Shown: positions 1 through 27,047 of the stretch, in pieces
How positions within the stretch are numbered: the first letter of the stretch is position 1
Layout of the letters: every line of letters begins with the position of its first letter
Assembly: GCA_017499595.2 (NCBI GenBank)
Contig: CM039007.1
Coordinates: 1 to 64,000 of the forward strand
Direction of reading: 5' to 3'
Length of the DNA stretch: 64,000 nt
Origin: Psilocybe cubensis
Taxonomy: Eukaryota
The notes under the pieces: model-generated
The model's database searches: none
Seen by the model: the letters and a program-made list of their open reading frames with translations, nothing else
Told to the model about the DNA's origin: nothing
Program-made: the position numbers and the translations under genes

Positions 1-149
1 CTAAACCCTAAACCCTAAACCCTAAACCCTAAACCCTAAACCCTAAACCCTAAACCCTAAACCCTAAACCCTAAACCCTAAACCCTAAACCCTAAACCCT
101 AAACCCTAAACCCTAAACCCTAAACCCTAAACCCTAAACCCTAAACCCT
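1..149 (+). repeat. Terminal telomeric array (CCCTAAA)n = (TTTAGGG)n; left chromosome end
   Basis: About 21 perfect CCCTAAA units from base 1, with the C-rich strand on +. Confidence 0.97.
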
Positions 150-761
150 AAAAAACCCTAACCCTAAACCTAAACCTAAACCCTAAACCCTAAACCCTAA
201 GCCCTAACCTAACCCCAACCCTAAGCTAACTAAGTCTAACCTTAGTAGGAAGTAAGGTAGGCGTGTGAACTTCCGAAAGGCATGTGATTGTGAAGGGCCG
301 GATCTAATTTAGTACATGGGAAAAGTTACTTAGTACCTCGGGAAAAGTTCCTTAGTACCGTGGAAACATTTTTGATGGACCGGATCATGAACTGTCCAAT
401 TAAGATTCACAACAATCAATCAATTGATTGTTAGGTAAGGACCCAGGTAAGCTATTTATACTCTTGACATGAGAATATTCCCATGTCACGGTTACTCGGA
501 GCCACGTAACCAGAGTATTTTATATCCATGTGATTCACATCACAGTCAATAACCCACGATGTCAAAGAACAAAAGTGTTGGATCCACTTTTGACAGGTTA
601 CCATGTGCCACATCGACCCGTGACACTCTGTTCATCAGAGATCTGTCTAACTTGACAATAAACATTGACAGATTTGTGATAGTCGGTAAGATACATGACA
701 GCTGCGCAGCATCACTTCACGCGCTGTCATCGGATGTTCCAGAACATTCCTTCTAAGAATA

Positions 762-824
762 GCCACTGAAGAGTCTATAAAGACGAAAGGGCTGGCTGCT
801 GATAACAATCAACAGCCCTCTGGC
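762..824 (+). ncRNA. Type I hammerhead ribozyme; predicted cleavage after C820 (CUC)
   Basis: GCCA-CTGAAGA-GTCT/ATAA/AGAC-GAAA-GGGCTG...CAGCCC-TC-TGGC. The catalytic core is complete and stems I, II and III pair. Confidence 0.92.
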
Positions 825-858
825 CTTCTTTCCATTTAACTCACAGTTTAAACAAGTC

Positions 859-887
859 GCTCGCACCTCGCTTCGCTCGGTGCTCGC
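859..887 (+). promoter_or_regulatory. Conserved hairpin just upstream of the telomere-annealing site (putative RT recognition signal); repeated at the 3' end of every pLTR and fragment
   Basis: GC-TC-GCACC-TC-GCTTCGC-TC-GGTGC-TC-GC. It covaries with the family-2 copy at 26979-27013. Confidence 0.65.
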
Positions 888-931
888 TCCCCCCCTAAAC
901 CCAACGACTTTGCTATTACCCAACAGCTACT

Positions 932-2087
932 ATGTCTTCCACTTACTCTGCTGCCTTCTCTCGTGCCATGTCCCCCACCCTGGACGCACTCACCCAGGCT
1001 GTCGTCAACAACACAGTTTTTGGCGTCAACGACGAAGCTGGCCGCCACAACGCCCTCATCGACGAGTTGGCCACTGTCGTCATCAAGAAAATAGCTGAGT
1101 GCCGCTCCATTGACCAGATTGTAGACTGCGTCTTTTTTGACTATCGTGCTGCCCTTAGGGAGTTTCTCCTCAACCTCGCATCGTGGTGCGATAAGAGGGA
1201 AACAGTCAAGGCTAGCCTCGAGCGCCTTGAACTTGCCGTTAGCGCAGGCAACACCCCCAATCGCCTTCGGGTGAAGGCTCCCGAGTTCCAACTTACGAAG
1301 GAATTCGCGGATGCCGGGTCAGCGGAAGCTCTTCGAGTTTCCTCTACGTTCTCCACCGCTCGTGATGTCTTCCAAAAGGCAATCAACGACGGCGCCATTC
1401 AGGCGAAAAAGGACGAACTGGCCTTTTGGGATGATAAATGCGCACTCAATAACTGTTATGAAGCTGCTGCCCTCATCGTTAAGACAACTTACGATGATCG
1501 CAAATCCAGCTATAAGCTCCCCGTTTTCTCTACAGACAACAAGGGAGTTCGTCGAATAACAGATTGGGTAGTGTCACCGCAGAAGAAGGCTGAATGCAGC
1601 GCATTGCAAACCATTTTGCCAGCCATCTTCTCTCATATCAAACAGATTGTCAACTTGCGCCACCGCGCTTTGGCAATCAAGATTGAGAAAAAGCGGTCGA
1701 CTGCGGCAACAGCCGATGTCGAGATGGCCGATGCGACCAAACCAGGTCCATCGATTCAATCCCTTATTGATAAGGGCTTGAATGCACGTCTCAAGAAGCT
1801 CAACCTTGGATCTGTGGGCAAGAAGGCAAGTTCTCGTAACCCTTCACCCATAACTCTGGATACTAATTACTATTCTAATTACCCAGACTTTGTCTGGCCA
1901 GAATTCGTCCAAGGCTCCTCAACCTCAGGCCAAGAAAGCTGGCCCTTCGAAATTCAAACCCTCGTCGACGCCTTCGCAGAAGAAGCCCCAAACCAAGGCT
2001 TCCAACAAGGTCGACAACAAGAAGAAAGGGAAGGGGAGAGCTCCCGTCAAGAACGATCCAAAGGGAAAGGGAAAGGCAAGAGCCTAG
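932..2087 (+). CDS. Predicted spliced ORF1 protein (join 932-1825, 1887-2087; 364 aa) with a Lys-rich C-terminal tail
   Basis: AAG|GCAAGT donor, CTAAT branch and CCCAG acceptor define a 61-nt intron. Splicing joins in frame to the 1890-2087 ORF. Equivalent introns lie at 6991-7051 and 15783-15843. Confidence 0.7.
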
Positions 2088-4462
2088 ACGCGCGGTCTAA
2101 TGTAGTACCTTTTACGTCGGTAAGACCCGCCTTCCCCAACTCTATTCCTGACGATATACTCACCATGACTAAAACAGACGCAGTTTCTTTTGTACACTTA
2201 CATACGCCGATCTCATTCTTGTTGGCTGGCCAGTATCGTAGTAGTGTACACTGTAGTCCTGGTGTGGTGGTCCCTGTAGATATAGCAAATGATTTGTCAC
2301 TCGGACTCAATTATATGTTTTTTACTCTACCTTCTCAAAGTCTGATCATGCAAGCATGGAATGATTTTCAACGAAGAATAAGATGGCGTATCTATTTTTT
2401 GTTTAAGGAAGGCATGAACAAACCTTTTGATCCAGATTACGGAGTAAGCTCAAAAAAGAAAGAGAAACCTCCAGTATTACCGCAATACATGGAACTTGGC
2501 CTTTCGATGGGACGTCGGTACGTGCAACGCACGATCGCAAGTATCCCGGAAGAAGCCCTTACGGAGATGCGAAAGCACGCGTTCTCTCCTAAAAGGGACA
2601 AGATCCGTAAGTTTCTTATCGATAACAACTATGTTATTACGATGACAGATAAGAATCTTGGCCTCGCGGTGTCTGAACGCGACTGGATATTAAGGAATGA
2701 GCTCAATCTTCTTAAAGATGAACGTAACTATGAAGAGTTAGAATTCGAAGTTGCGCAAGAAGTAATGAAGAGCAAAATGATCCAGATGCAAACTCTTGCA
2801 CATACCGTCGAAGATGAACATCTGTTTCTATTTGAACTTGGGTTGTCTCGATTCTTTCTATCGAATGTACCGGAAGACGGATCATCGTTCAAGTACCCTC
2901 AATTTCATGGTATACCTAAAATCCACAAAAAACCTACTGGATTTAGGCCCATAATTCCGTGTCACTCTGTAGTATTTAATCCTGCAGCCAAGTTTGTATC
3001 AAAAGAGCTTAAGCCGATTATTAAATCGACTCCTTCAATCATTCACGGAACGAAGGATCTCTTTACGAGATTAAGCCAATTGCGTATAGACCCCAAACGA
3101 CAATGGTATTTTGTCACCGGGGATGTAGTTGCTTTCTATCCCAATATTCCGTTGGACTTGTGCATCGAAATCGTTTGTAATATGTACGAGGAATGGTTAC
3201 TCAACGCTTCGGAAGAAAACACTGCATTAGCCCATATTAATCCAAATTCGTTAGAGAATAACTTGGTTAAATTGGGCATCTTTAAACGTGCTATCGAGAT
3301 TGGCAATACGCAATTGATAACACAACATGGGTCTAGATATTTTAGACAAAAAAATGGCCTCGCAATGGGCGTCGCGGATTCTCCGGACCTTGCTAACCTC
3401 TTTGGAGCCCATTTTGAAATAAAGTCAAAAATCTTAGACCACCCAAACGTGGCCTTCTATGGAAGGTACATCGACGATTGTTTCGCAATTGTCTACGCCG
3501 AGTCCGAAGCACTTGCACTTAATCTTATTAAAGAAACAATAAAGTTCGATGGTTGTGTTATCGAATGGGCTGTTTCCTCGTCGGGATGTCAATTTCTCGA
3601 TGCTTTCATATTCAAGGAGTCTGGAAAACTTCATTGGAAGCCATTTGTCAAGACAGGAAACAACCGAGAACGAGTTCCATGGGTATCACATCATCCTTTG
3701 GACGTCAAACGTGGCGTCTACATTGGAGAGTTATCCAGGTTAGCCGTGCTATGTAGTACCAAGGAAATCTACATCGGAGCAATTAGAGACCTTAACGCTC
3801 TCTATTTGATGCGCGGTTATCCCGAAAACCTAGTCATGTCTTGGTGTAAGAAGAATATACAAGAACGTTGGGAAAAGCGATTCGCTTTACGAGTCGCAGA
3901 GCACGACGAATCCATTCTTGTACTTAAAACCAGATTTGATCAGGTATGGAATTGGTTTTCAGCTGCTGAACTTGGAAAAACTGTTACCGAGTACTGGTCG
4001 GCATGGTATGAACATGCCGAGAAAGGTTTGTATAGTGCAGACTCGTCCAGACCCCTTATCAAACCAGATCCAAATTACGTTCACGACCTCGATGATGTTC
4101 GCCCGGAGCTGTTCACACAGATCCTCGTGGACGGAGAAACTGAGTTCGTACCGGATTTGAGGAAGATAGGACTACTCGGAAGTCGTTGGATAGTATCGCG
4201 AAAACGCAATACTAATCTTTTCGACCTTGCAAATGTGTGGAAGAAAACAGTCTTTCGTAAACTGGATGAAGACATCGCTGAAAAAGGTGGTGTTGTTCCC
4301 GAAACTCAAAACGTTAATGAAACTTATCATTCTGCTTTAGTTGAAGCTGCTGAACAGATAAGTATCGAAAGTGATAACGAGATAATACTTCATAGACGTT
4401 CAATCTCACAAGAGAGGGAACATCCAGAATTCGGCAGAATATCCAAATCTTACAACCGATGA
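932..4462 (+). CDS. Penelope-like reverse transcriptase ORF (1176 aa if the internal intron is retained); no endonuclease
   Basis: RT motifs FHGIPKIHK, FRPIIP, TGDVVAFYPNIP, RQKNGLAMG, GRYIDDCF and QFLD, plus the thumb-region HHPLDVKRG. Confidence 0.92.
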   Translation: MSSTYSAAFSRAMSPTLDALTQAVVNNTVFGVNDEAGRHNALIDELATVVIKKIAECRSIDQIVDCVFFDYRAALREFLLNLASWCDKRETVKASLERLELAVSAGNTPNRLRVKAPEFQLTKEFADAGSAEALRVSSTFSTARDVFQKAINDGAIQAKKDELAFWDDKCALNNCYEAAALIVKTTYDDRKSSYKLPVFSTDNKGVRRITDWVVSPQKKAECSALQTILPAIFSHIKQIVNLRHRALAIKIEKKRSTAATADVEMADATKPGPSIQSLIDKGLNARLKKLNLGSVGKKASSRNPSPITLDTNYYSNYPDFVWPEFVQGSSTSGQESWPFEIQTLVDAFAEEAPNQGFQQGRQQEEREGESSRQERSKGKGKGKSLDARSNVVPFTSVRPAFPNSIPDDILTMTKTDAVSFVHLHTPISFLLAGQYRSSVHCSPGVVVPVDIANDLSLGLNYMFFTLPSQSLIMQAWNDFQRRIRWRIYFLFKEGMNKPFDPDYGVSSKKKEKPPVLPQYMELGLSMGRRYVQRTIASIPEEALTEMRKHAFSPKRDKIRKFLIDNNYVITMTDKNLGLAVSERDWILRNELNLLKDERNYEELEFEVAQEVMKSKMIQMQTLAHTVEDEHLFLFELGLSRFFLSNVPEDGSSFKYPQFHGIPKIHKKPTGFRPIIPCHSVVFNPAAKFVSKELKPIIKSTPSIIHGTKDLFTRLSQLRIDPKRQWYFVTGDVVAFYPNIPLDLCIEIVCNMYEEWLLNASEENTALAHINPNSLENNLVKLGIFKRAIEIGNTQLITQHGSRYFRQKNGLAMGVADSPDLANLFGAHFEIKSKILDHPNVAFYGRYIDDCFAIVYAESEALALNLIKETIKFDGCVIEWAVSSSGCQFLDAFIFKESGKLHWKPFVKTGNNRERVPWVSHHPLDVKRGVYIGELSRLAVLCSTKEIYIGAIRDLNALYLMRGYPENLVMSWCKKNIQERWEKRFALRVAEHDESILVLKTRFDQVWNWFSAAELGKTVTEYWSAWYEHAEKGLYSADSSRPLIKPDPNYVHDLDDVRPELFTQILVDGETEFVPDLRKIGLLGSRWIVSRKRNTNLFDLANVWKKTVFRKLDEDIAEKGGVVPETQNVNETYHSALVEAAEQISIESDNEIILHRRSISQEREHPEFGRISKSYNR

Positions 4463-4511: not shown

Positions 4512-4574
4512 GTAAGTATTCCTTGCTACAAAGTAACAAACATCTACTTACAAGCAACACATTGGATTAAATAG
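4512..4574 (+). other. 63-nt spliceosomal intron interrupting a telomeric tract (also at 9680-9742, 13071-13133 and 18472-18534)
   Basis: AAACCCTAACC|GTAAGT...ATAG|CTAAACC. Precisely spliced versions are present at 163/164 and 5325/5326. Confidence 0.88.
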
Positions 4575-5172
4575 CTAAACCTAAACCTAAACCCTAAACC
4601 CTAAACCCTAAGCCCTAACCTAACCCCAACCCTAAGCTAACTAAGTCTAACCTTAGTAGGAAGTAAGGTAGGCGTGTGAACTTCCGAAAGGCATGTGATT
4701 GTGAAGGGCCGGATCTAATTTAGTACATGGGAAAAGTTACTTAGTACCTCGGGAAAAGTTCCTTAGTACCGTGGAAACATTTTTGATGGACCGGATCATG
4801 AACTGTCCAATTAAGATTCACAACAATCAATCAATTGATTGTTAGGTAAGGACCCAGGTAAGCTATTTATACTCTTGACATGAGAATATTCCCATGTCAC
4901 GGTTACTCGGAGCCACGTAACCAGAGTATTTTATATCCATGTGATTCACATCACAGTCAATAACCCACGATGTCAAAGAACAAAAGTGTTGGATCCACTT
5001 TTGACAGGTTACCATGTGCCACATCGACCCGTGACACTCTGTTCATCAGAGATCTGTCTAACTTGACAATAAACATTGACAGATTTGTGATAGTCGGTAA
5101 GATACATGACAGCTGCGCAGCATCACTTCACGCGCTGTCATCGGATGTTCCAGAACATTCCTTCTAAGAATA

Positions 5173-5235
5173 GCCACTGAAGAGTCTATAAAGACGAAAG
5201 GGCTGGCTGCTGATAACAATCAACAGCCCTCTGGC
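5173..5235 (+). ncRNA. Hammerhead ribozyme (variant A)
   Basis: Same sequence as 762-824. Confidence 0.92.
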
Positions 5236-5924
5236 CTTCTTTCCATTTAACTCACAGTTTAAACAAGTCGCTCGCACCTCGCTTCGCTCGGTGCTCGCTC
5301 CCCCCCTAAACCCTAAACCCTAACCCTAAACCTAAACCCTAAACCCTAAACCCTAAACCCTAACCTAACCCCAACCCTAAGCTAACTAAGTCTAACCTTA
5401 GTAGGAAGTAAGGTAGGCGTGTGAACTTCCGAACGGCATGTGATTGTGAAGGGCCGGATCTAATTTAGTACATGGGAAAAGTTACTTAGTACTTCGGGAA
5501 AAGTTCCTTAGTACCGTGGAAACATTTTTGATGGACCGGATCATGAACTGTCCAATTAAGATTCACAACAATCAATCATTCTATTGTTTGATTGTTAGGT
5601 AAGGACCCAGGTAAGCTATTTATACTCTAGACATGTGAATATTCCCATGTCGCGGTTACTCGGAGCCACGTAACCAGAGTAATCTATATCCATGTGATTC
5701 ACATCACAGTCAATAACCCACGATGTCAAAGAACAAAAGTGTTGGATCCACTTTTGACAGGTTACCATGTGCCACATCGACCCGTGACACTCTGTTCATC
5801 AGAGACCTGTCTAACTTGACAATAAACATTGACAGATTTGTGATAGTCGGTAAGATACATGACAGCTGCGCAGCATCACTTCACGCGCTGTCATCGGATG
5901 TCTAGAACATTCCTTCTAAGAATA

Positions 5925-5987
5925 GCCACTGAAGAGTCTATAAAGACGAAAGGGCTGGTTGTTGGGATCCCCCAACAGCCCTCTGGC
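5925..5987 (+). ncRNA. Hammerhead ribozyme (variant B)
   Basis: Same core. The distal part of stem III is TTGGG/ATCC/CCCAA. Confidence 0.92.
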
Positions 5988-6096
5988 CTTCTTTCTATTT
6001 CAAACTCACAGTTTAAACTAGTCGCTCGCACCTCGCTTCGCTCGGTGCTCGCTCCCCCCCTAAACCCAACGACTTTGCTATCACCCATCAGTTACC

Positions 6097-9630: not shown

Positions 9631-10341
9631 AAAGAATACTAGCGCGTAAGGCGTAAAGCATTAGAAAAAAACCCTAACCGTAAGTATTCCTTGCTATAAA
9701 GTAACAAACATCTACTTACAAGCAACACTTTGGATTAAATAGCTAAACCTAAACCCTAAACCCTAAACCCTAAACCCTAACCTAACCCCAACCCTAAGCT
9801 AACTAAGTCTAACCTTAGTAGGAAGTAAGGTAGGCGTGTGAACTTCCGAACGGCATGTGATTGTGAAGGGCCGGATCTAATTTAGTACATGGGAAAAGTT
9901 ACTTAGTACTTCGGGAAAAGTTCCTTAGTACCGTGGAAACATTTTTGATGGACCGGATCATGAACTGTCCAATTAAGATTCACAACAATCAATCATTCTA
10001 TTGTTTGATTGTTAGGTAAGGACCCAGGTAAGCTATTTATACTCTAGACATGTGAATATTCCCATGTCGCGGTTACTCGGAGCCACGTAACCAGAGTAAT
10101 CTATATCCATGTGATTCACATCACAGTCAATAACCCACGATGTCAAAGAACAAAAGTGTTGGATCCACTTTTGACAGGTTACCATGTGCCACATCGACCC
10201 GTGACACTCTGTTCATCAGAGACCTGTCTAACTTGACAATAAACATTGACAGATTTGTGATAGTCGGTAAGATACATGACAGCTGCGCAGCATCACTTCA
10301 CGCGCTGTCATCGGATGTCTAGAACATTCCTTCTAAGAATA

Positions 10342-10404
10342 GCCACTGAAGAGTCTATAAAGACGAAAGGGCTGGTTGTTGGGATCCCCCAACAGCCCTC
10401 TGGC
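10342..10404 (+). ncRNA. Hammerhead ribozyme (variant B)
   Basis: Same sequence as 5925-5987. Confidence 0.92.
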
Positions 10405-10523
10405 CTTCTTTCTATTTCAAACTCACAGTTTAAACTAGTCGCTCGCACCTCGCTTCGCTCGGTGCTCGCTCCCCCCCTAAACCCTAAACCCTAAACCCTA
10501 AACCCTAAACCCTAAACCCTAAA

Positions 10524-10601
10524 GCCTTCTTTCTATTTCAAACTCACAGTTTAAACTAGTCGCTCGCACCTCGCTTCGCTCGGTGCTCGCTCCCCCCCTA
10601 A
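10524..10601 (+). mobile_element. ~78-nt pLTR 3'-end fragment flanked by telomeric repeats
   Basis: Starts GCCTTCTTTCT, 2 nt downstream of the predicted hammerhead cut site, and ends at CCCCCCCTAA. Confidence 0.85.
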
Positions 10602-10615: not shown

Positions 10616-13600
10616 TCCAAAGGGAAAGGGAAAGGCAAGAGCCTAGATGCGCGGTCTAATGTAGTACCTTTTACGTCGGTGAGACCCGCCTTCCCCAACT
10701 CTATTCCTGACGATATACTCACCATGACTAAAACAGACGCAGTTTCTTTCGTACACTTACATACTCCAATATCATTCTTGTTGGCTGGCCAGTATCGTAG
10801 TAGTGTACATTGTAGTCCTGGTGTTTCTGTCCCTGTTGATGTAGCAAACGATCTCTCTCTCGGACTTAATTATATGTTTTTCACTCTGCCTTCTAAAAGT
10901 CTGATCATGCAAGCATGGAATGATTTCCAACGAAGAATAAGATGGCGTATCTATTTTTTGTTTAAGGAAGGCATGAATAAACCTTTTGATCCAGATTATG
11001 GAGTAAGCTCAAAAAAGAAAGAGAAACCTCCTGTATTACCGCAATATATGGAACTTGGCCTTTCGATGGGACGTCGGTACGTGCAACGCACGATCGCAAG
11101 TATCCCGGAAGAAGCCCTTACGGAGATGCGAAAGCACGCGTTCTCTCCTAAAAGGGACAAGATCCGTAAGTTTCTTATCGATAACAACTATGTTATTACG
11201 ATGACAGATAAGAATCTTGGCCTCGCGGTGTCTGAACGCGACTGGATATTAAGGAATGAGCTCAATCTTCTTGAAGATGAACGTAATTACGAAGAGTTAG
11301 AATTCGAAGTTGCGCAAGAAGTTATGAAGAGCAAAATGATTCAGATGCAAACGCTCGCACGTACTGTCGAAGATGAACATCTGTTTCTATTTGAACTTGG
11401 GTTGTCTCGATTCTTTCTATCGAATGTACCGGAAGACGGATCATCGTTCAAGTATCCTCAATTTCATGGTATACCTAAAATCCACAAGAAACCTACTGGA
11501 TTTAGGCCCATAATTCCGTGTCACTCTGTAGTATTTAATCCTGCAGCCAAGTTTGTATCAAAAGAGCTTAAGCCGATTATTAAATCGACTCCTTCAATCA
11601 TACACGGAACGAAGGATCTCTTTACGAGATTAAGCCAATTGCGTATAGACTCCAAAAGACAATGGTATTTTGTCACTGGAGATGTAGTTGCTTTCTATCC
11701 CAATATTCCGTTGGACTTGTGCATCGAAATCGTTTGTAGTATGTACGAGGAATGGTTACTCAACGCTTCGGAAGAAAACACTGCATTAGCCCATATTAAT
11801 CCAAATTCGTTAGAGAATAACTTGGTTAAATTGGGCATCTTTAAACGTGCTATCGAGATTGGCAATACGCAATTGATAACACAACATGGGTCTAGATATT
11901 TTAGACAAAAAAATGGCCTCGCAATGGGCGTCGCGGATTCTCCGGACCTTGCTAACCTCTTTGGAGCCCATTTTGAAATAAAGTCAAAAATCTTAGACCA
12001 CCCAAACGTGGCCTTCTATGGAAGGTACATCGACGATTGTTTCGCAATTGTTTACGCCGAGTCCGAAGCACTTGCACTTAATCTTATTAAAGAAACAATA
12101 AAGTTCGATGGTTGTGTTATCGAATGGGCTGTTTCCTCGTCGGGATGTCAATTTCTCGATGCTTTCATATTCAAGGAGTCTGGAAAACTTCATTGGAAGC
12201 CTTTTGTCAAGACAGGAAACAACCGAGAACGAGTTCCATGGGTATCACATCATCCTTTGGACGTCAAACGTGGCGTCTACATTGGAGAGTTATCCAGGTT
12301 AGCCGTGCTATGTAGTACCAAGGAAATCTACATCGGAGCAATTAGAGACCTTAACGCTCTCTATTTGATGCGCGGTTATCCCGAAAACCTAGTCATATCT
12401 TGGTGTAAGAAGAATATACAAGAACGTTGGGAAAAGCGATTCGCTTTACGAGTCGCAGAGCACGACGAATCCATTCTTGTACTTAAAACCAGATTTGATC
12501 AGGTATGGAATTGGTTTTCAGCTGCTGAACTTGGAAAAACTGTTACCGAGTACTGGTCGGCATGGTATGAACATGCCGAGAAAGGTTTGTATAGTGCAGA
12601 CTCGTCCAGACCCCTTATCAAACCAGATCCAAATTACGTTCACGACCTCGATGATGTTCGCCCGGAGCTGTTCACACAGATCCTCGTGGACGGAGAAACT
12701 GAGTTCGTACCGGATTTGAGGAAGATAGGACTACTCGGAAGTCGTTGGATAGTATCGCGAAAACGCAATACTAATCTTTTCGACCTTGCAAATGTGTGGA
12801 AGAAAACAGTCTTTCGTAAACTGGATGAAGACATCGCTGAAAAAGGTGGTGTTGTTCCCGAAACTCAAAACGTTAATGAAACTTATCATTCTGCTTTAGT
12901 TGAAGCTGCTGAGCAGATAAGTATCGAAAGTGATAACGAGATAATACTTCATAGACGTTCAATCTCACAAGAGAGGGAACATCCAGAATTTGGCAGAATA
13001 TCCAAATCTTACAACCGATGAAAAGAATACTAGCGCTTAAGGCGTAAAGCATTAGAAAAAAACCCTAACCGTAAGTATTCCTTGCTATAAAGTAACAAAC
13101 ATCTACTTACAAGCAACACATTGGATTGAATAGCTAAACCTAAACCTAAACCCTAAACCCTAAACCCTAAACCCTAACCTAACCCCAACCCTAAGCTAAC
13201 TAAGTCTAACCTTAGTAGGAAGTAAGGTAGGCGTGTGAACTTCCGAACGGCATGTGATTGTGAAGGGCCGGATCTAATTTAGTACATGGGAAAAGTTACT
13301 TAGTACTTCGGGAAAAGTTCCTTAGTACCGTGGAAACATTTTTGATGGACCGGATCATGAACTGTCCAATTAAGATTCACAACAATCAATCATTCTATTG
13401 TTTGATTGTTAGGTAAGGACCCAGGTAAGTTATTTATACTCTAGACATGTGAATATTCCCATGTCGCGGTTACTCGGAGCCACGTAACCAGAGTAATCTA
13501 TATCCATGTGATTCACATCACAGTCAATAACCCACGATGTCAAAGAACAAAAGTGTTGGATCCACTTTTGACAGGTTACCATGTGCCACATCGACCCGTG

Positions 13601-13878
13601 ACACTCTGTTCATCAGAGACCTGTCTAACTTGACAATAAACATTGACAGATTTGTGATAGTCGGTAAGATACATGACAGCTGCGCAGCATCACTTCACGC
13701 GCTGTCATCGGATGTCTAGAACATTCCTTCTAAGAATAGCCACTGAAGAGTCTATAAAGACGAAAGGGCTGGTTGTTGGGATCCCCCAACAGCCCTCTGG
13801 CTACTTTCCATTTAACTCCCAGTTTAAACTAGTCGCTCGCACCTCGCTTCGCTCGGTGCTCGCTCCCCCCCTAAACCC
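10616..13878 (+). mobile_element. Family-1 copy 3, 5'-truncated and capped by telomeric repeats; RT frame open to 13021
   Basis: CCCTAAA joins directly to TCCAAAGGGAAAGGG (ORF1/RT boundary). The 3' pLTR is complete. Confidence 0.9.
13739..13801 (+). ncRNA. Hammerhead ribozyme (variant B, stem I extended to TAGCCA/TGGCTA)
   Basis: Core and all three stems are intact. Confidence 0.92.
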
Positions 13879-13910: not shown

Positions 13911-14088
13911 CTTCACGCGCTGTCATCGGATGTCTAGAACATTCCTTCCAAGAATAGCCACTGAAGAGTCTATAAAGACGAAAGGGCTGGTTGTTGGGAT
14001 CCCCCAACAGCCCTCTGGCCTTCTTTCTATTTCAAACTCACAGTTTAAACTAGTCGCTCGCACCTCGCTTCGCTCGGTGCTCGCTCCC
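13911..14088 (+). mobile_element. ~180-nt pLTR 3' fragment including a hammerhead (13957-14019)
   Basis: Flanked by CCCTAAA tracts on both sides. Confidence 0.85.
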
Positions 14089-14139: not shown

Positions 14140-17100
14140 CCTAAACCCTAAACCCTAAGCCCTAACCTAACCCCAACCCTAAGCTAACTAAGTCTAACCT
14201 TAGTAGGAAGTAAGGTAGGCGTGTGAACTTCCGAAAGGCATGTGATTGTGAAGGGCCGGATCTAATTTAGTACATGGGAAAAGTTACTTAGTACCTCGGG
14301 AAAAGTTCCTTAGTACCGTGGAAACATTTTTGATGGACCGGATCATGAACTGTCCAATTAAGATTCACAACAATCAATCAATTGATTGTTAGGTAAGGAC
14401 CCAGGTAAGCTATTTATACTCTTGACATGAGAATATTCCCATGTCACGGTTACTCGGAGCCACGTAACCAGAGTATTTTATATCCATGTGATTCACATCA
14501 CAGTCAATAACCCACGATGTCAAAGAACAAAAGTGTTGGATCCACTTTTGACAGGTTACCATGTGCCACATCGACCCGTGACACTCTGTTCATCAGAGAT
14601 CTGTCTAACTTGACAATAAACATTGACAGATTTGTGATAGTCGGTAAGATACATGACAGCTGCGCAGCATCACTTCACGCGCTGTCATCGGATGTTCCAG
14701 AACATTCCTTCTAAGAATAGCCACTGAAGAGTCTATAAAGACGAAAGGGCTGGCTGCTGATAACAATCAACAGCCCTCTGGCTACTTTCCATTTAACTCA
14801 CAGTTTAAATTAGTCGCTCGCACCTCGCTTCGCTCGGTGCTCGCTCCCCCCCTAAACCCAACGACTTTGCTATTATCCATCAGCCACTATGTCATCCCAA
14901 TACTCTGCTGCTTTCTCTCGTGCCATGTCCCCCACCCTGGACGCACTCACCCAGGCCGTCGTCAACAACACCGTCTTCGGCGTCAACGATGAAGCAGGCC
15001 GCCATAACGCTCTGATCGACGAGCTGGCCACTGTGGTCATCAAAAAAATAGCTGAGTGCCGCTCCGTTGACCAAGTCATAGACTGCGTCTTTTTTGACTA
15101 TCGTGCTGCCCTTAGGGAGTTTCTCCTCAACCTCGCATCGTGGTGCGATAAGAGGGAAACAGTCAAGGCTAGCCTCGAGCGCCTTGAATCTGCCGTTAGC
15201 GCAGGCAACACACCCAATCGCCTTAAGGTGAAGGCACCCGAGTTCCAACTTACGAAGGAATTCGCGGATGCCGGGTCAGCGGAGGCTCTTCGAGTCTCCA
15301 CTACGTTCTCTACCGCTCGTGACGCCTTCCAAAAGGCAATTAACGACGGCGCCGTTCAGGCGAAAAAGGACGAGCTGGCTTTTTGGGATGATAAATGCGC
15401 GCTCAACTCTTGCTACGAAGCTGCTGCCCTCATCGTTAAGGCAACTTACGATGATCGCAAATCCAGCTACAAGCTCCCTGTTTTCTCTACAGACAACAAG
15501 GGAGTTCGACGTATAGCAGAGTGGGTAGTGTCTCCGCAAAAGAAAGCCGAATGCAGTGCGCTGCAAACTATACTGCCGGCGATCTTTTCTCATATCAAAC
15601 AGATTGTCAACATGCGCCACCGCGCCTTGGCAATTAAGATTGAGAAAAAGCGGATGACTGCGGCAACAGCCGATGTCGAGATGGCCGACGCGACCAAACC
15701 AGGTCCGTCGATTCAATCCCTTATTGATAAGGGCTTGAATGCACGTCTCAAGAAGCTCAACCTTGGATCTGTGGGCAAGAAGGCAAGTTTTCGTAACCCT
15801 TCACCCATAATTCTGGATACTAATTATTACTCTAATTACCCAGACTTTGTCTGGCCAGAATTCGTCCAAGGCTCCTCAACCTCAGGCCAGGAAAGCTGGC
15901 CCTTCGAAACCCAAGTCGTCGTCGACGCCTTCGCAACGCAAGCCTCAAACCAAGGCTTCCAACAAGGTCGACAACAAGAAGAAAGGGAAGGGGAGAGCTC
16001 CCGTCAAGAACAACGATCCAAAGGGAAAGGGAAAGGCAAGAGCCTAGACGCGCGGTCTACTGTAGCATCATTTACGTCGGTGAGACCCGCTTTCCCCAAC
16101 TCTATTCCTGACGATATACTCACCATGACTAAAACAGACGCAGTTTCTTTCGTACACTTACATACTCCAATATCATTCTTGTTGGCTGGCCAGTATCGTA
16201 GTAGTGTACATTGTAGTCCTGGTGTTTCTGTCCCTGTTGATGTAGCAAACGATCTCTCTCTCGGACTTAATTATATGTTTTTCACTCTGCCTTCTAAAAG
16301 TCTGATCATGCAAGCATGGAATGATTTTCAACGAAGAATAAGATGGCGTATCTATTTTTTGTTTAAGGAAGGCATGAATAAACCTTTTGATCCAGATTAT
16401 GGAGTAAGCTCAAAAAAGAAAGAGAAACTCCCAGTATTACCGCAATACATGGAACTTGGCCTTTCGATGGGACGTCGGTACGTGCAACGCACGATCGCAA
16501 GTATCCCGGAAGAAGCCCTTACGGAGATGCGAAAGCACGCGTTCTCTCCTAAAAGGGACAAGATCCGTAAGTTTCTTATCGATAACAACTATGTTATTAC
16601 GATGACAGATAAGAATCTTGGCCTCGCGGTGTCTGAACGCGACTGGATATTAAGGAATGAGCTCAATCTTCTTGAAGATGAACGTAACTACGAAGAGTTA
16701 GAATTCGAAGTTGCGCAAGAAGTGATGAAGAGCAAAATGATACAGATGCAAACGCTCGCACGTACTGTCGAAGATGAACATCTGTTTCTATTTGAACTTG
16801 GGTTGTCTCGATTCTTTCTATCGAATGTACCGGAAGACGGATCATCGTTCAAGTATCCTCAATTTCATGGTATACCTAAAATCCACAAGAAACCTACTGG
16901 ATTTAGGCCCATAATTCCGTGTCACTCTGTAGTATTTAATCCTGCAGCCAAGTTTGTATCAAAAGAGCTTAAGCCGATTATTAAATCGACTCCTTCAATC
17001 ATACACGGAACGAAGGATCTCTTTACGAGATTAAGCCAATTGCGTATAGACTCCAAAAGACAATGGTATTTTGTCACTGGAGATGTAGTTGCTTTCTATC

Positions 17101-19272
17101 CCAATATTCCGTTGGACTTGTGCATCGAAATCGTTTGTAGTATGTACGAGGAATGGTTACTCAACGCTTCGGAAGAAAACACTGCATTAGCCCATATTAA
17201 TCCAAATTCGTTAGAGAATAACTTGGTTAAATTGGGCATCTTTAAACGTGCTATCGAGATTGGCAATACGCAATTGATAACACAACATGGGTCTAGATAT
17301 TTTAGACAAAAAAATGGCCTCGCAATGGGCGTCGCGGATTCTCCGGACCTTGCTAACCTCTTTGGAGCCCATTTTGAAATAAAGTCAAAAATCTTAGACC
17401 ACCCAAACGTGGCCTTCTATGGAAGGTACATCGACGATTGTTTCGCAATTGTTTACGCCGAGTCCGAAGCACTTGCACTTAATCTTATTAAAGAAACAAT
17501 AATGTTCGATGGTTGTGTTATCGAATGGGCTGTTTCCTCGTCGGGATGTCAATTTCTCGATGCTTTCATATTCAAGGAGTCTGGAAAACTTCATTGGAAG
17601 CCATTTGTCAAGACAGGAAACAACCGAGAACGAATTCCATGGGTATCACATCATCCTTTGGACGTCAAACGTGGCGTCTACATTGGAGAGTTATCCAGGT
17701 TAGCCGTGCTATGTAGTACCAAGGAAATCTACATTGGAGCAATTAGAGACCTTAACGCTCTCTATTTGATGCGCGGTTATCCCGAAAACCTAGTCATGTC
17801 TTGGTGTAAGAAGAATATACAAGAACGTTGGGAAAAGCGATTTGCTTTACGAGTCGCAGAGCACGACGAATCCATTCTTGTACTTAAAACCAGGTTTGAT
17901 CAGGTATGGAATTGGTTTTCAGCTGCTGAACTTGGAAAGACTATTACCGAGTACTGGTCGGCATGGTATGAACATGCCGAGAAAGGTCTGTATAGTGCAG
18001 ACTCGTCCAGACCCCTTATCAAACCAGATCCAAATTACGTTCACGACCTCGATGATGTTCGCCCGGAGCTGTTCACACAGATCCTCGTGGACGGAGAAAC
18101 TGAGTTCGTACCGGATTTGAGGAAGATAGGACTACTCGGAAGTCGTTGGATAGTATCGCGAAAGCGCAATACTAATCTTTTCGACCTTGCAAATGTGTGG
18201 AAGAAAACAGTCTTTCGTAAACTGGATGAAGACATCGCTGAAAAAGGTGGTGTTGTTCCCGAAACTCAAAACGTTAATGAAACTTATCATTCTGCTTTAG
18301 TTGAAGCTGCTGAACAGATAAGTATCGAAAGTGATAACGAGATAATACTTCATAGACGTTCAATCTCACAAGAGAGGGAACATCCAGAATTCGGCAGAAT
18401 ATCCAAATCTTACAACCGATGAAAAGAATACTAGCGCGTAAGGCGTAAAGCATTAGAAAAAAACCCTAACCGTAAGTATTCCTTGCTACAAAGTAACAAA
18501 CATCTACTTACAAGCAACACATTGGATTAAATAGCTAAACCTAAACCTAAACCCTAAACCCTAAACCCTAAGCCCTAACCTAACCCCAACCCTAAGCTAA
18601 CTAAGTCTAACCTTAGTAGGAAGTAAGGTAGGCGTGTGAACTTCCGAAAGGCATGTGATTGTGAAGGGCCGGATCTAATTTAGTACATGGGAAAAGTTAC
18701 TTAGTACCTCGGGAAAAGTTCCTTAGTACCGTGGAAACATTTTTGATGGACCGGATCATGAACTGTCCAATTAAGATTCACAACAATCAATCAATTGATT
18801 GTTAGGTAAGGACCCAGGTAAGCTATTTATACTCTTGACATGAGAATATTCCCATGTCACGGTTACTCGGAGCCACGTAACCAGAGTATTTTATATCCAT
18901 GTGATTCACATCACAGTCAATAACCCACGATGTCAAAGAACAAAAGTGTTGGATCCACTTTTGACAGGTTACCATGTGCCACATCGACCCGTGACACTCT
19001 GTTCATCAGAGATCTGTCTAACTTGACAATAAACATTGACAGATTTGTGATAGTCGGTAAGATACATGACAGCTGCGCAGCATCACTTCACGCGCTGTCA
19101 TCGGATGTTCCAGAACATTCCTTCTAAGAATAGCCACTGAAGAGTCTATAAAGACGAAAGGGCTGGCTGCTGATAACAATCAACAGCCCTCTGGCTACTT
19201 TCCATTTAACTCACAGTTTAAATTAGTCGCTCGCACCTCGCTTCGCTCGGTGCTCGCTCCCCCCCTAAACCC
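14140..19272 (+). mobile_element. Family-1 copy 4 (5' edge blurred in telomeric repeats); hammerheads at 14720-14782 and 19133-19195
   Basis: 4413-bp period. Both pLTRs share the diagnostic TGGCTAC...AAATTAGTC tail. Confidence 0.9.
14889..18422 (+). CDS. Penelope-like RT ORF, copy 4 (1177 aa)
   Basis: RT motifs are intact. Confidence 0.92.
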   Translation: MSSQYSAAFSRAMSPTLDALTQAVVNNTVFGVNDEAGRHNALIDELATVVIKKIAECRSVDQVIDCVFFDYRAALREFLLNLASWCDKRETVKASLERLESAVSAGNTPNRLKVKAPEFQLTKEFADAGSAEALRVSTTFSTARDAFQKAINDGAVQAKKDELAFWDDKCALNSCYEAAALIVKATYDDRKSSYKLPVFSTDNKGVRRIAEWVVSPQKKAECSALQTILPAIFSHIKQIVNMRHRALAIKIEKKRMTAATADVEMADATKPGPSIQSLIDKGLNARLKKLNLGSVGKKASFRNPSPIILDTNYYSNYPDFVWPEFVQGSSTSGQESWPFETQVVVDAFATQASNQGFQQGRQQEEREGESSRQEQRSKGKGKGKSLDARSTVASFTSVRPAFPNSIPDDILTMTKTDAVSFVHLHTPISFLLAGQYRSSVHCSPGVSVPVDVANDLSLGLNYMFFTLPSKSLIMQAWNDFQRRIRWRIYFLFKEGMNKPFDPDYGVSSKKKEKLPVLPQYMELGLSMGRRYVQRTIASIPEEALTEMRKHAFSPKRDKIRKFLIDNNYVITMTDKNLGLAVSERDWILRNELNLLEDERNYEELEFEVAQEVMKSKMIQMQTLARTVEDEHLFLFELGLSRFFLSNVPEDGSSFKYPQFHGIPKIHKKPTGFRPIIPCHSVVFNPAAKFVSKELKPIIKSTPSIIHGTKDLFTRLSQLRIDSKRQWYFVTGDVVAFYPNIPLDLCIEIVCSMYEEWLLNASEENTALAHINPNSLENNLVKLGIFKRAIEIGNTQLITQHGSRYFRQKNGLAMGVADSPDLANLFGAHFEIKSKILDHPNVAFYGRYIDDCFAIVYAESEALALNLIKETIMFDGCVIEWAVSSSGCQFLDAFIFKESGKLHWKPFVKTGNNRERIPWVSHHPLDVKRGVYIGELSRLAVLCSTKEIYIGAIRDLNALYLMRGYPENLVMSWCKKNIQERWEKRFALRVAEHDESILVLKTRFDQVWNWFSAAELGKTITEYWSAWYEHAEKGLYSADSSRPLIKPDPNYVHDLDDVRPELFTQILVDGETEFVPDLRKIGLLGSRWIVSRKRNTNLFDLANVWKKTVFRKLDEDIAEKGGVVPETQNVNETYHSALVEAAEQISIESDNEIILHRRSISQEREHPEFGRISKSYNR

Positions 19273-19287: not shown

Positions 19288-19369
19288 TGGCCTTCTTTCC
19301 ATTTAACTCACAGTTTAAACAAGTCGCTCGCACCTCGCTTCGCTCGGTGCTCGCTCCCCCCCTAAACCC
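19288..19369 (+). mobile_element. 82-nt pLTR fragment beginning exactly at the hammerhead cleavage site
   Basis: AAACCCT|TGGCCTTCTTTCC...CCCCCCCTAAACCC matches 821-902. Confidence 0.88.
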
Positions 19370-19387
19370 TAAACCCTAAACCCTAAG

Positions 19388-22485: not shown

Positions 22486-22724
22486 TTACATTGTCAATGT
22501 AAGTGTTTTTTCATTTAAGAATAGCCCATTCTAACAAAAATATGTAGATATATGCGTGTTTTTTTGGTCAATATGTCATATAAATTTATTTTTTGGTGTC
22601 TACACAAGAGAGCTCGCGTGAGATATATACAAGTTGATATCAGGGTAAGATGACTAGTTATAAAAAATCTAACAAAATTACAGTACAGCAAGGCCGAGGT
22701 GTATCAAATACAAAACAGCGAAAT

Positions 22725-23550: not shown

Positions 23551-23865
23551 GGGAGACAGGCGGGAGGCCGGCCTCCAGTGCCTGTCAAAAATTTATTTTT
23601 AGACGGAGGCCGGCCTCCAGTGCCTGTCAAAAGTTATTTTTAGACGGAGGCCGGCCTCCAGTGGCCTCCATCAATTTGGAGGCCGGCCTCCATAAATTAC
23701 ACATTTAATTACGTAGCACCTCCGTATGTACAAAATAAAATATTTTGAAAGTGTATTTGGGGGTTTTTGGGGTCCAGGAATCCGAATCTGGCATCAGATT
23801 TCAGGAATTCTGAACAGGAGGCCCAATGCAACGAAGGCCCCCCCTTCGGGGGGGAATAAGCCTAG
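23550..23865 (+). mobile_element. Terminus of a large DNA transposon (copy 1), superfamily unresolved
   Basis: Four GGAGGCCGGCCTCC palindromes, then a C7-TTC-G7 hairpin (23838-23854) and AATAAGCCTAG. The same end occurs at 41700-42121, and homology stops abruptly there. Confidence 0.75.
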
Positions 23866-26033
23866 ACGCGTGGAAAGATTTCGAAAGACGGGTGCGTTGG
23901 CGCCTGTACTTCTCCTTTATACAAAAGGAGTCTGATTATGATCCTGACTTTGAGTACGAACGCACTCCCAGTGAATACGTACCTAAGTTTCCGCAATATA
24001 TCGAAAGAGGGTTCGCTCGCGGTGAAGCTTTTGTATCAAAAGCAATTCTTAATATTCCGCCCGAACAAGACAAGGACATTAGAAAATCGTTCAGTCCGAG
24101 TTATTCCTTAATCGAAAAGTTTTTACTGGATAACGACTATGTTGTTACTGGAACAGATAAGAACCTAGGCATCGCGGTGTCCGAACGAACCTGGATCATT
24201 AATAAATGTCTCGAATTACTTAGTAATCCGCTCGATTACGAGTGCATTACTCCCCTAAGAAGAGACAAATTCTTTAAGCTACAATGCGATACTGCTGTAG
24301 AACTAGCTAACTTTGCGCTAGTTAATAAAGTGCGATACTACGGCCAACTTCAACACTTCTTGCGGTCCAACGCACCTCCATACGAGTTAGTTGGCGGAAA
24401 GTGGAAGTGGGATGATAATAATCCAGTGAAGGTGCCTGTCTTTTACGGGATACCCAAAATTCACAAAACACCCGTAAAGATGCGGCCTATTATACCGTGT
24501 CACTCCGCGATTCAAAATCCCGCGGCCAAATATTGTAGCAAAAAACTTAAACCGCTTATCAAGGCGGCGCCATCCATTATACATGGAACCAAAGACCTGG
24601 CGATAAAATTAAGTAAGCTCGAGTTGAATACGAGTCGTCAGTACTTTATTGTCACTGGCGACGTAGTTGCCTATTACCCGAATATACCAATCGATTCATG
24701 TCTACAAATTGTGTCTGATATGTACGACGAGTATTATACGGCCGAAGAGAATAGAGCATGGGATGAAGATCCCGACTACGTCCCGATTTCACCCGATGAA
24801 CACGAACTGTTCAGACGATGCTTGAGATTCGGAAATACTCAGCTTATAGCACAGTTTCAAGATAAATTCTACTTGCAGAAAAGAGGATTAGCGATGGGGG
24901 TCGCGTCTTCGCCGGACTTAGCCAATCTCTACGGCTGGCATTTCGAGCGCGCAAGTGGAATTATGAATCACCCGTCCGTAGCTTTCTATGGCAGGTACAT
25001 CGACGATTGTCTTGCAATCGTTTACGCTTCTTCAGAACTAGAAGCCGTAAACATTATGAAGACTTTAACATTCGCCGGCTGTGTAATAGAATGGTCCGCT
25101 TCAAAGGCTCAGCCTTTCCTCGACATGCTTCTCTACATCGATTTTGCCAATAATCGACGTCTAGAACACATGCCGTACCGCAAGAGCGGAAACCATCAGG
25201 AAAGAATTCCATTCGTTAGCCATCATCCCATGGACGTCAAAAGAGGCACGTTCATCGGCGAGATGAGTAGGATGGCCACCCTCAGTAGTACTATAGTCCA
25301 CTACCGAGATGCGATCAAACAACTTGTTGCTTTGTATATCGCGCGTGGTTATCCGAGCGGCTTGGTATCTAAATGGATGCGAGAAAACATCAAAGTACGA
25401 TGGCAAAAACGGCTGAATGTCCCTGTCCGTGCGCACGAAGACGTACTTGTTCTCAAATCAGAATTTAATACCGCATGGAATTGGTTTTCCGCGCAAGAGC
25501 TCAAAGACGTACTTGTGGAATATTGGCAGAACTATATGATAAAAGCTGCCAATGGGTCGTTCGATGATGAATACCCCATTTTGTCCCATCGTACTGGAAG
25601 CCTGGAAGGGCCGACCATTCCCTATGAGGTGCTTACGCAAATCAGAGTGAGTGATCTGCCTTCTCCTTTCCATATGGTGGACATCAGGAAAATTGATGTC
25701 CCACGAAGAAGAATTCTTGTGTCGCGGAAACGCACCAAGAATCTTTTCGACTATACAAGTCTTTGGAAAAAACTCGTCGTTGAGAAGCTCGACAAGGATG
25801 TTCTTAATCCTGACGACAACGCTAATATGGCGCATGATATTAACAACGCCTCGAACGATTCCCGCTCCGGTGGGTCTCTAGTAGGGCCGCGCGAAATTGT
25901 GCTGCCAGGCGAAGTCGACGATGCTCCGTCTCCCATGTCTATAAATCTTCACGCGGGAAGTGATGATCCCATGGAAGGCGATTTGGAGTACGTCGAACGT
26001 CAAGATGTCCTTCTCGATAACTTATTCAGATAA
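23866..26033 (+). CDS. Family-2 Penelope-like RT, N-terminally truncated
   Basis: FYGIPKIHK, MRPIIP, TGDVVAYYPNIP, QKRGLAMG, GRYIDDCL, PFLD and HHPMDVKRG. The first ~12 codons of the listed ORF (from 23826) come from the transposon end. Confidence 0.88.
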
Positions 26034-26879: not shown

Positions 26880-26949
26880 TGGACCTGATGAGCCTTATAA
26901 AAAGGCGAAAAAGTGGAAGGGAGCTTCTCCAAGCCCCCACTTTTGTCCA
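26880..26949 (+). ncRNA. Type I hammerhead ribozyme of family 2; predicted cleavage after 26944 (UUU)
   Basis: TGGAC-CTGATGA-GCCTT/ATAAA/AAGGC-GAAA-AAGTGG...CCACTT-TT-GTCCA. Confidence 0.88.
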
Positions 26950-27015
26950 CAAGCCTTAGGCCATCCAGCCTTTTCTAACCAACTCGCAGCTCGCTTCGCT
27001 CGCTGCTCGTTGGGC

Positions 27016-27047
27016 ACCCTAAACCCTAAACCCTAAACCCTAAAACC
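27016..27047 (+). repeat. Interstitial telomeric tract marking a former chromosome end
   Basis: Four CCCTAAA units between the family-2 element and unrelated sequence. Confidence 0.85.

Follow-up and report, generated by a model that had tools for sequence, protein, structure and literature searches.

Endonuclease-less Penelope-like elements (PLEs) are the closest retrotransposon relatives of telomerase. To our knowledge, the way in which they choose a chromosome end and start there is understood only in outline, as a ribozyme combined with a telomere-complementary stretch. In the available portions of two reports, which summarise Gladyshev & Arkhipova 2007 and Arkhipova et al. 2017, the ends of Athena/Terminon and Coprina PLEs consist of a terminal-repeat hammerhead and a short reverse-complement telomere stretch that pairs with the G-overhang (PMC6431247, PMC8557442), and the available portion of the latter contains neither 'hairpin' nor 'stem-loop'. 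For the pLTRs of fungal telomere-associated PLEs, the ribozyme passages of Cervera & de la Pena 2014 (PMC4209133) give type I hammerheads with a large or long helix III, and describe no downstream hairpin and no insertion starting at the cleavage site.

Penelope-like elements at a chromosome end

The window, by which we mean the whole 64-kb stretch analysed, opens on ~200 nt of (CCCTAAA)n, which identifies it as a chromosome end read along the C-strand. PLE units are arrayed head-to-tail with telomere repeats in between, comprising three full units, one unit with a 5'-truncated body, one 190-nt fragment and two ~80-nt fragments. Self-comparison revealed a layout of pLTR (~700 nt), 10-nt tail, ~3.7-kb body, short telomere tract and pLTR, with pLTR pairs that are 100% identical within a unit (3/3 units) and 94.8-99.3% identical between units. 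The main features of the host elements are as follows.

1..200, + strand: terminal telomere tract, C-strand (CCCTAAA)n, of which the inner part (151-200) is a spliced junction of exon 1 and exon 2 (3' UTR plus telomere-like tract)
202..892, + strand: 5' pLTR of unit 1, 100% identical to the 3' pLTR at 4611-5303
932..4462, + strand: RT ORF of 1176 aa, an N-terminal region followed by a PLE-type RT (FRPIIP, GDVVAFYP, GLAMG, YIDD)
4513..4575, + strand: spliceosomal-type intron of 63 nt (GTAAGT...TAG), splitting the telomere-like tract between 3' UTR and pLTR
23826..26033, + strand: family-2 RT ORF, 5'-truncated, with 46% identity to family 1 over 664 aligned residues

The 1176-aa ORF has 413 homologues, the best of which show 99% identity and carry names of RT-domain proteins from Psilocybe cubensis. 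Its RT core scored 27.3 bits against RVT_1, slightly below the cut-off of 29.6; the whole ORF had no Pfam match at E<=0.01, a PDB sequence search with it returned no match, and no endonuclease domain (GIY-YIG) was detected in it with Pfam. The ORF ends ~170 aa beyond a thumb-like region. The units sit at a chromosome end, with centromere-facing ORFs, telomere-repeat spacers, frequent 5' truncation and pLTRs, and the pLTR hammerhead motif adjoins reverse-complement telomere repeats, as expected of a Coprina-type element. The host is a Coprina-type endonuclease-less PLE, a clade assignment taken from architecture and the literature rather than from a tree holding named Coprina references. The published picture of such elements, as given in the available parts of PMC8557442 and PMC13159263, matches this locus. 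An earlier note, written from the sequence alone, had supposed PLE RT hosts at a telomere, and this is borne out by the RT motifs, the homologues, the (CCCTAAA)n end and the family-2 RT. The host element, its telomeric habit, its pLTRs and its hammerhead are known already.

The intron occurs in both families and at many loci. In unit 1 (151-200) and unit 2 (~5313-5345) alike, the distal flank holds the precisely spliced junction with a unit-specific repeat pattern, and the proximal copy of the junction retains the intron in both units, as it does in one of the metagenomic relatives described below (L010). A spliced distal copy together with an intron-bearing proximal copy implies that the intron is functional. 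The same pattern in units 1 and 2, distal junction spliced and proximal unspliced, argues against deriving the pLTR-body-pLTR arrangement from one circular RNA that had been copied 1.15 times; it suits either a change of template to another RNA that had been spliced, or a long RNA that had lost its cap-proximal intron but kept its last one.

In both families the pLTR carries a hammerhead 34-42 nt upstream of the hairpin that is our subject.

762..824, + strand: type I hammerhead of family 1, GCCA-CUGAAGA-(GUCU AUAA AGAC)-GAAA-(GGGCUG...CAGCCC)-UC^UGGC, with predicted cleavage at 820/821
5177, 5929, 10346, 13743, 13961, 14724 and 19137: CUGANGA starts of the other family-1 hammerhead copies
26881..26948, + strand: hammerhead of family 2, GGAC-CUGAUGA-(GCCUU AUAAA AAGGC)-GAAA-(AAGUGG...CCACUU)-UU^GUCC, with predicted cleavage after 26944

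CUGANGA and GAAA cores, three helices, a cleavable H17 and an open helix I are all present, as expected of type I. Across the window and 80 related loci, a hammerhead descriptor gave 51 RT-sense matches and none antisense, compared with 0-1 in shuffles. The Rfam hammerhead models, run at relaxed E-values, stayed below gathering (RF00008, 19.5 versus 48.5 bits; RF03152, 23-25 versus 56.3).

The hairpin, its relatives and the start of insertion

Between the hammerhead cleavage site and the body lies a segment of 82 nt, hereafter the X module, which holds the hairpin and the tail.

821..902, + strand: X module, from hammerhead cleavage site to tail end, the smallest unit inserted alone
859..887 (core 863-883), + strand: family-1 hairpin, GC-TC-GCACC-TC-GC-TTC-GC-TC-GGTGC-TC-GC
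893..902, + strand: tail CCCTAAACCC, 1.4 telomere repeats, complementary to the G-overhang
5274..5294, + strand: second copy of the hairpin core
6028-6048, 10445-10465, 10566-10586, 13839-13859, 14060-14080, 14820-14840, 19233-19253 and 19330-19350: identical family-1 cores
10524..10601, + strand: mini-insertion flanked by telomere repeats, starting 2 nt inside the predicted hammerhead cleavage site
19288..19369, + strand: mini-insertion flanked by telomere repeats, starting exactly at the predicted hammerhead cleavage site
26979..27013, + strand: family-2 hairpin, CCAAC-TC-GCAGC-TC-GC-TTC-GC-TC-GCTGC-TC-GTTGG, three helical segments with UC/UC loops between them
27017..27043, + strand: telomere-complement tract behind the family-2 hairpin

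In family 1, the hairpin at 859-887 is followed by TCCCCCCC (a C-run) and TAAACCC up to 902, and the tail is 10 nt long at each of the three pLTR-body junctions. The 12-mer TCGCTTCGCTCG occurs 11 times in the window, always on the + strand, against an expectation of 0.16, corresponding to ten hairpin copies of family 1 and one of family 2. A hairpin ends every unit, 3-10 nt ahead of the tail CCCTAAACCC or a longer (CCCTAAA)n run. The earlier note gave both hairpin sequences exactly as we find them, and the stem swap to which it drew attention (GCACC/GGTGC versus GCAGC/GCTGC) is real. Its statement that every insertion includes the hairpin also holds, since all family-1 unit ends carry one, including those of both ~80-nt units and the 190-nt unit. 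It had further called the two pLTRs otherwise unalignable, which is true of blastn (a match of ~60 nt only) but overlooks the hammerhead, the intron and the telomere-like tracts common to both. At gathering score, Rfam had 0 matches across the 64-kb window. Two other identities were considered and discarded: a cUUCGg tetraloop, whose register is incompatible with the stems, and a part of the hammerhead, from which the hairpin is 34-42 nt away and whose core motifs it lacks.

The mini-insertions locate the start of the module. One begins at the predicted cut (0 nt) and the other at +2 nt, which argues for ribozyme cleavage in vivo, and the existence of both suggests that the ~82-nt X segment can act alone as a template. 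X plus tail forms the 3' end of 10/10 family-1 units, whereas the internal telomere tract, which at 20-27 nt is longer than the tail, forms the end of 0/4 bodies, and complementarity alone thus does not pick the start site. Judged by the end-points of these copies, the X module is shown to be insertable alone and insertions always to begin there, a pattern that would agree with a positioning or specificity role for the hairpin-tail module.

One explanation places the element at the RNA level: the sense hairpin, putatively bound by the RT or a host factor, would position the tail for pairing with the G-overhang. Priming at the hairpin module and never at the longer internal tract speaks for this, as does the insertion of the 82-nt module on its own. 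The topology is also that of template-boundary helices, in that a stem-loop is joined through a short linker to an A-B-A' tail (CCC-UAAA-CCC), and according to the available part of one report PLE RTs fall in one clade with TERT and UG RTs, including DRT10 (10.1101/2025.10.16.682844). The earlier note had compared the hairpin to telomerase template-boundary elements. The likeness stands as far as a helix lies 5' of a short tail with alignment and templating parts, but it fails on function: all ten family-1 insertions and the family-2 copy contain the hairpin together with sequence from its 5' side. Read-through by the RT is seen in 10/10 copies, and there is no boundary stop.

We next turn to relatives of the element. 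From metagenomes, 80 loci were fetched by RT homology only (37-74% identity to the query). Of the 80, 18 contain the exact 11-mer TCGCTTCGCTC; its orientation is invariably RT-sense, and a telomere-like tail nearly always follows directly. More generally, the apex TCGCT-N-CGCTC recurs among the relatives with stems that are unrelated in sequence yet complementary (for example, GCACGAC/GTCGTGC, ACAAACT/AGTTTGT, ACACTGC/GCAGTGT and AAAAAATC/GATTTTTT). For a covariation analysis, we assembled 20 distinct 35-mers from the window and the metagenomes, chosen by apex only and aligned without gaps; three apex matches within coding sequence and one overlapping match were omitted. In the mirrored structure, 70.0% of cells were paired compared with 50.4% after shuffling (0/500 shuffles as high), with slid registers at 20-40%, and the covariation score was 0.418 compared with 0.155 (again 0/500). 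The alignment thus shows a stem kept by compensatory changes and an almost invariant apex. The covariation claimed in the earlier note is weak on two families alone, and the 20 apex-anchored sequences make the case strong.

These figures bear on the possibility of structure without function, in which low-complexity (TCGC)n-like sequence would have been conserved by descent. TCGC-like words are indeed frequent nearby, and family 1, folded as a single sequence, does not stand out. Against it, unrelated stems stay complementary across RTs that are only 40-75% identical, and none of the 500 shuffles reached the observed pairing or the observed covariation. The data contradict this reading, and we consider it hardly credible.

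A covariance model built from these 20 sequences, of the kind that the earlier note had proposed for searching fungal genomes, returned 45 matches at E<=1, 43 of them RT-sense, in the window and 23 of the 80 loci. The hairpin occurs in many families other than the original two, and the absence from other families that would have counted against the earlier note is thus not what is seen. An unbiased set was formed by 41 distinct X modules, delimited from the hammerhead cut to the first telomere-like word. Of these, 22/41 held a C-UNC-G hairpin having 7 or more Watson-Crick pairs, compared with a mean of 0.5 in shuffles (maximum 3) and 1.06 in random windows from the same loci (maximum 5); a C-GNA-G hairpin on the sense strand was found in 0/41. 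The 19 X modules without a hairpin, mostly with short X (47-56 nt), had no significant substitute fold (z of their 3' parts against shuffles, +0.6 to -2.7). They exclude a hairpin universal in Coprina and indicate that it is not essential for Coprina-type priming.

In an RT tree (FastTree, 71 rows, 11 of 82 having been dropped for short or interrupted matches), the hairpin appeared in all deep clades and its absence was concentrated in one derived clade; labels were automatic, the 'GNA' labels of L003-5, L013, L043 and L046 being probably chance hairpins elsewhere in the locus and the motif-bearing loci L019 and L054-58 being labelled unknown. Tail type tracks the host repeat, with the same hairpin found beside tails of the 6-mer CCCTAA and the 7-mer CCCTAAA type. 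Among the hairpin-bearing fungal elements, module length was 59-82 nt and tail length 5-11 nt.

Which strand folds

The hairpins show a marked polarity. Within the apex only the central triloop base varies; among the 20 rows it is T sixteen times, G three times and C once, and L041 has TAC. Across 27 hairpins, 30 of the 32 2x2 internal loops were 5'-UC-3'/5'-UC-3', and the 1x1 helix mismatches comprised eight A·C, two C·A, four C·U and no G·U, in a sample that is not independent, several loci being near-copies (~7 independent families with A·C versus 0 with G·U). The hammerhead helices of the same elements have 17 G·U among 587 pairs. Read on the complement, the triloop becomes GNA closed by C-G, the UC/UC loops become tandem 5'-GA-3'/3'-AG-5' in a C-GA-G context, and the A·C mismatches become G·T wobbles. 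The minus strand of the family-1 hairpin, for example, reads GC-GA-GCACC-GA-GC-GAA-GC-GA-GGTGC-GA-GC. All 20 alignment rows have an antisense GCGNAGC (N free; A, C or G observed) or CCGAAGG, the apexes being GCGAAGC, GCGCAGC, GCGGAGC and CCGAAGG; the CCGAAGG type is found in L001, L010-12, L042, L049, L052 and L061.

Such apexes are known from single-stranded DNA. In the available portion of a 2026 review (PMC13037366), the d(GCGNAGC) mini-hairpin has a Tm of 76.5 C, is nuclease-resistant and binds SSB poorly; its stability goes beyond what conventional thermodynamic models can explain, its RNA counterpart is far weaker and TTC-loop hairpins are ordinary. As natural examples the review cites the G4 origin, ssiA (CCGAAGG) and N4 (GCGGAGC), which are priming or promoter sites on ssDNA. 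Two adjacent G-A pairs, according to the available part of PMC11014236, do not destabilise B-DNA.

Folding pointed the same way, with unequal force. With RNA parameters, the antisense strand gave the better fold in 24/24 cases, by a mean of -4.6 kcal/mol; with DNA parameters it did so in 23/24, by a mean of -1.6. Fold z for sense RNA was -1.9 in family 1, a thermodynamically unremarkable value, and -3.4 in family 2; for the complement it was -4.2 and -5.2, respectively. With DNA parameters, z of the complement was -1.0 in family 1, which is not significant (37/200 shuffles equally good), and -3.3 in family 2. Because conventional models miss mini-hairpin stability, the nearest-neighbour folds used here may understate that of the antisense strand. 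Standard pairs made up 73.2% of the structure antisense versus 70.0% sense, 3 points apart, and the covariation score was 0.486 on the complement versus 0.418 on the sense strand. The mismatch spectrum may be in part compositional, the sense strand being pyrimidine-rich overall.

The lack of G·U, the A·C and U·C mismatches and the GNA loop of the complement together suggest that the complementary DNA strand has been selected to fold. An RNA-level element would also be expected to have a nearly invariant apex, as a site of protein contact. The absence of G·U beside ten A·C mismatches tells against it, since the odd features destabilise the RNA and stabilise its complement; moreover, the UC/UC loops number one to three per hairpin at variable positions, a poor fit to a fixed protein footprint, and the apical UC/UC is missing both in the closest relative (L001) and in L010-12. 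Together with the read-through described above, this leaves the RNA-level explanation somewhat unlikely in our judgement.

We favour the joint reading that the hairpin is a conserved Coprina-type cis element whose fold is selected chiefly in the first-strand cDNA (G-strand), a reading to which, going by the sequence evidence, we assign a probability of roughly 0.4. As the hairpin lies between hammerhead cut and tail, it is the first structured sequence copied from a tail-annealed telomeric G-overhang. First-strand cDNA is an obligatory intermediate; its single-stranded folded state, with sheared G·A pairs, is putative. In the mechanism we propose, the telomeric G-overhang would anneal to the tail and the RT would extend it through the module, whereupon the first ~35 copied nucleotides, beside the telomeric primer, would snap into a compact DNA hairpin. 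The RNA hairpin would be kept weak so that the RT can read through it. The DNA hairpin could also help the purine-rich cDNA to leave the pyrimidine-rich 3' module of the template, and would leave a compact, double-strand-like and protein-refractory structure at the junction of telomere and element. In known ssDNA replicons, such structures mark the places next to which primases and polymerases begin. A pyrimidine-rich RNA paired with a purine-rich DNA is the weaker kind of RNA:DNA hybrid.

Several points weigh against a folded cDNA. Neither hairpin matches a 35-bp RNA:DNA hybrid in stability, and the antisense advantage predicted with DNA nearest-neighbour parameters is small. In addition, cDNA primed at the 3' module has the hairpin at its 5' end, from which a second-strand primer would fill only a short gap toward the old telomere; of the hairpin copies, only that in the 5' pLTR has a position suited to priming across the body. 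The cDNA-level and RNA-level readings are not mutually exclusive, and the latter retains genuine support.

The cDNA hairpin might, further, be a start signal for C-strand synthesis. In this specific version of the favoured explanation, the mini-hairpin would be the entry point at which host Pol alpha-primase/CST, or the RT, primes the second strand (C-strand), with the 5'-pLTR copy priming across the body. The siting of natural mini-hairpins at ssDNA priming and promoter sites is in keeping with this, ssiA having the very apex of the CCGAAGG-type loci listed above, and on the cDNA strand a G-rich motif resembling the telomere repeat is always found directly next to the hairpin. The 5'-truncated copies, however, hold just the 3' hairpin, which is wrongly placed for priming the body, and we judge the version improbable.

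Position relative to the gene raises one further alternative, an expression element: the hairpin might belong to the 5' UTR of the RT mRNA, to its start site or to the core promoter. Where a pLTR adjoins a body, 45-70 nt separate the hairpin from a downstream ATG, which follows close behind the tail, and a TATAAA is conserved in the loop of hammerhead helix II, ~85-100 nt upstream of the hairpin. Compensatory stem changes speak against a factor site in duplex DNA, however, and an RNA structure in the 5' UTR should tolerate G·U and show no antisense preference. An expression element is, accordingly, very unlikely.

Relation to known systems

If the cDNA-fold reading is right, the hairpin would be a rare cis signal working as folded first-strand cDNA, and the d(GCGAAGC) mini-hairpin, a chemical curiosity, would be linked to telomere biology. 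In either case, the hairpin joins the ribozyme and the telomere-complement as a third conserved part of the PLE start module. Between them, the covariance model and an arm-swap mutant design open the choice between RNA and DNA to direct test. In the literature searched, the hairpin, its covariation, the cut-site mini-insertions and the cDNA polarity were not found, and Gladyshev & Arkhipova 2007 and Arkhipova et al. 2017 may bear on them.

Going by the available portions of the reports cited at the outset, Athena and Coprina share with this locus an endonuclease-less telomeric PLE, a hammerhead and a telomere-complement stretch, and the hammerhead of PMC4209133 is the ribozyme type found beside the hairpin here. 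The rotifer telomere stretch, as described there, lies directly downstream of the ribozyme fold, whereas here a spacer of 34-42 nt and a covarying hairpin come before the tail.

Telomerase RNA and DRT10 offer a second comparison. The DRT10 ncRNA has a stem-loop (SL5) just upstream of its template, which is required (10.1101/2025.10.16.682844, available part), and as far as these sources go the likeness consists in a stem-loop directly 5' of a short A-B-A' template in the service of a TERT/PLE/UG-clade RT. Unlike in those systems as there described, the stem-loop here is always copied through and its RNA stem is weakened by pyrimidine mismatches. A bolder reading is that the ~82-nt RNA freed by the hammerhead could be a free-standing template, made up of a 5' end cut by the ribozyme, the stem-loop, a short linker and an A-B-A' tail of 1.4 telomere repeats, on which the Coprina RT would work in a telomerase-like manner at chromosome ends, with the stem-loop as a leaky boundary and the mini-hairpin as the mark of read-through. 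We regard this reading as rather improbable. Were it true, the elements would be a living intermediate between retrotransposon and telomerase, and theirs would be the first eukaryotic retroelement signal selected as folded single-stranded DNA.

Retroviruses provide a parallel in TAR/cTAR, a hairpin in the R region (the terminally repeated leader) whose complement, in the first DNA made, folds as cDNA. No sequence or family relation connects it with the present hairpin, and the transcription role of TAR has no counterpart seen here.

The apex itself matches d(GCGNAGC) and d(CCGAAGG) as presented in the available portion of PMC13037366, the antisense strand here having exactly such an apex, in which N is free and the closing pair is C-G. 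No mini-hairpin in a eukaryotic retroelement or telomere was found in the literature examined, parts of which were available. The known mini-hairpins in that portion belong to phage and plasmid ssDNA origins and N4 promoters, and the hairpin described here extends their apex by tandem G·A and Watson-Crick segments.

Short insertions and the hammerhead cleavage site

Two very short insertions in the array, each of about 80 nt and bounded on both sides by telomere repeats, have start points that coincide or nearly coincide with the predicted hammerhead cleavage site:

10524-10601, mini-insertion starting 2 nt inside the predicted cleavage site
19288-19369, mini-insertion starting exactly at the predicted cleavage site

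These start points provide genomic evidence for cutting by the hammerhead in vivo and for reverse transcription of the cut RNA. The loop of hammerhead helix II, found in the window at 772-781 and 26895-26905, is almost always UAUAAA(G) or UAUUUAAA across the window and L001-L030, a set of metagenome loci fetched by RT homology. This word resembles a TATA box, is located ~45-50 nt upstream of the cleavage site and may represent a promoter signal overlapping the ribozyme.

Terminal repeats, RT ORF and an intron in the telomere-like tract

Three units of the window carry pLTR pairs that can be compared directly:

202-902 and 4611-5303, first pLTR pair
5361-6067 and 9781-10484, second pLTR pair
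14159-14859 and 18572-19262, third pLTR pair

Within-unit pairs were 100% identical in all three cases, with up to 5.2% difference between units. Identity within units despite divergence among them therefore implies either that one template stretch served for both pLTRs or that the two were inherited jointly. The family-1 RT ORF (932-4462) is uninterrupted over 1176 aa; two annotated P. cubensis relatives, P0003 and P0004, are 1080-1081 aa long. An in-frame stretch near 1828-1887 of this ORF has intron-like ends (GCAAGT...CAG).

Separately, a conserved GTAAGT...TAG intron interrupts the telomere-like tract that links the 3' UTR to the pLTR, with the following copies and related flanks:

4513-4575, 9681-9743, 13072-13134 and 18473-18535, intron, family 1
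about 26542-26605, intron, family 2
151-200, distal flank with junction, unit 1
about 5313-5345, distal flank with junction, unit 2
about 4764-4790 of metagenome locus L010, related case

Upstream of the 5' pLTR, the flanks of units 1 and 2 contain the junction in exactly spliced form, with a repeat pattern particular to each unit, and each unit retains the intron in its downstream copy of the junction. The corresponding flank of unit 6 consists of plain telomere repeats.

One metagenome locus, L045, has an additional hairpin of the same type:

3131-3165 of L045, hairpin with apex TCGCTCCGCTC (complement, GGA)

It lies where the terminal repeat begins, immediately downstream of a telomere-like tract, and its orientation relative to that tract is the reverse of the usual arrangement.

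Subtelomere beyond the array

The element array ends at 19386, and is followed by:

19387-22165, region containing a 924-aa ORF that begins directly after the last telomere tract
22700-23700, minisatellite and then ~45-nt repeats, between this ORF and the family-2 element
42082-45381, Ty1/copia-type polyprotein ORF (RVT_2, rve, gag_pre-integrs)
51738-53273, NPHP3_N/NACHT-type NTPase ORF

The 924-aa ORF matched no Pfam family and does not resemble the RT. The minisatellite is G+C-rich, with units such as GGCGGCGACGGCGGGACGACAGGC, and the ~45-nt unit includes GGAGGCCGGCCTCC palindromes.

Tails and telomere repeats

Among the metagenome loci, the same hairpin is accompanied by tails of either the CCCTAA or the CCCTAAA type, and the tail therefore tracks the telomere repeat of the host. 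Tails at pLTR-body junctions of these loci are just 5-11 nt long. The telomere repeat of the window, at 1-200 and in all internal tracts, is a 7-mer of the TTTAGGG type rather than TTAGGG, with 6-, 7- and 8-nt variants in the short tracts separating units. A TTTAGGG-type repeat is likewise reported for Stropharia rugosoannulata (PMC8874372).
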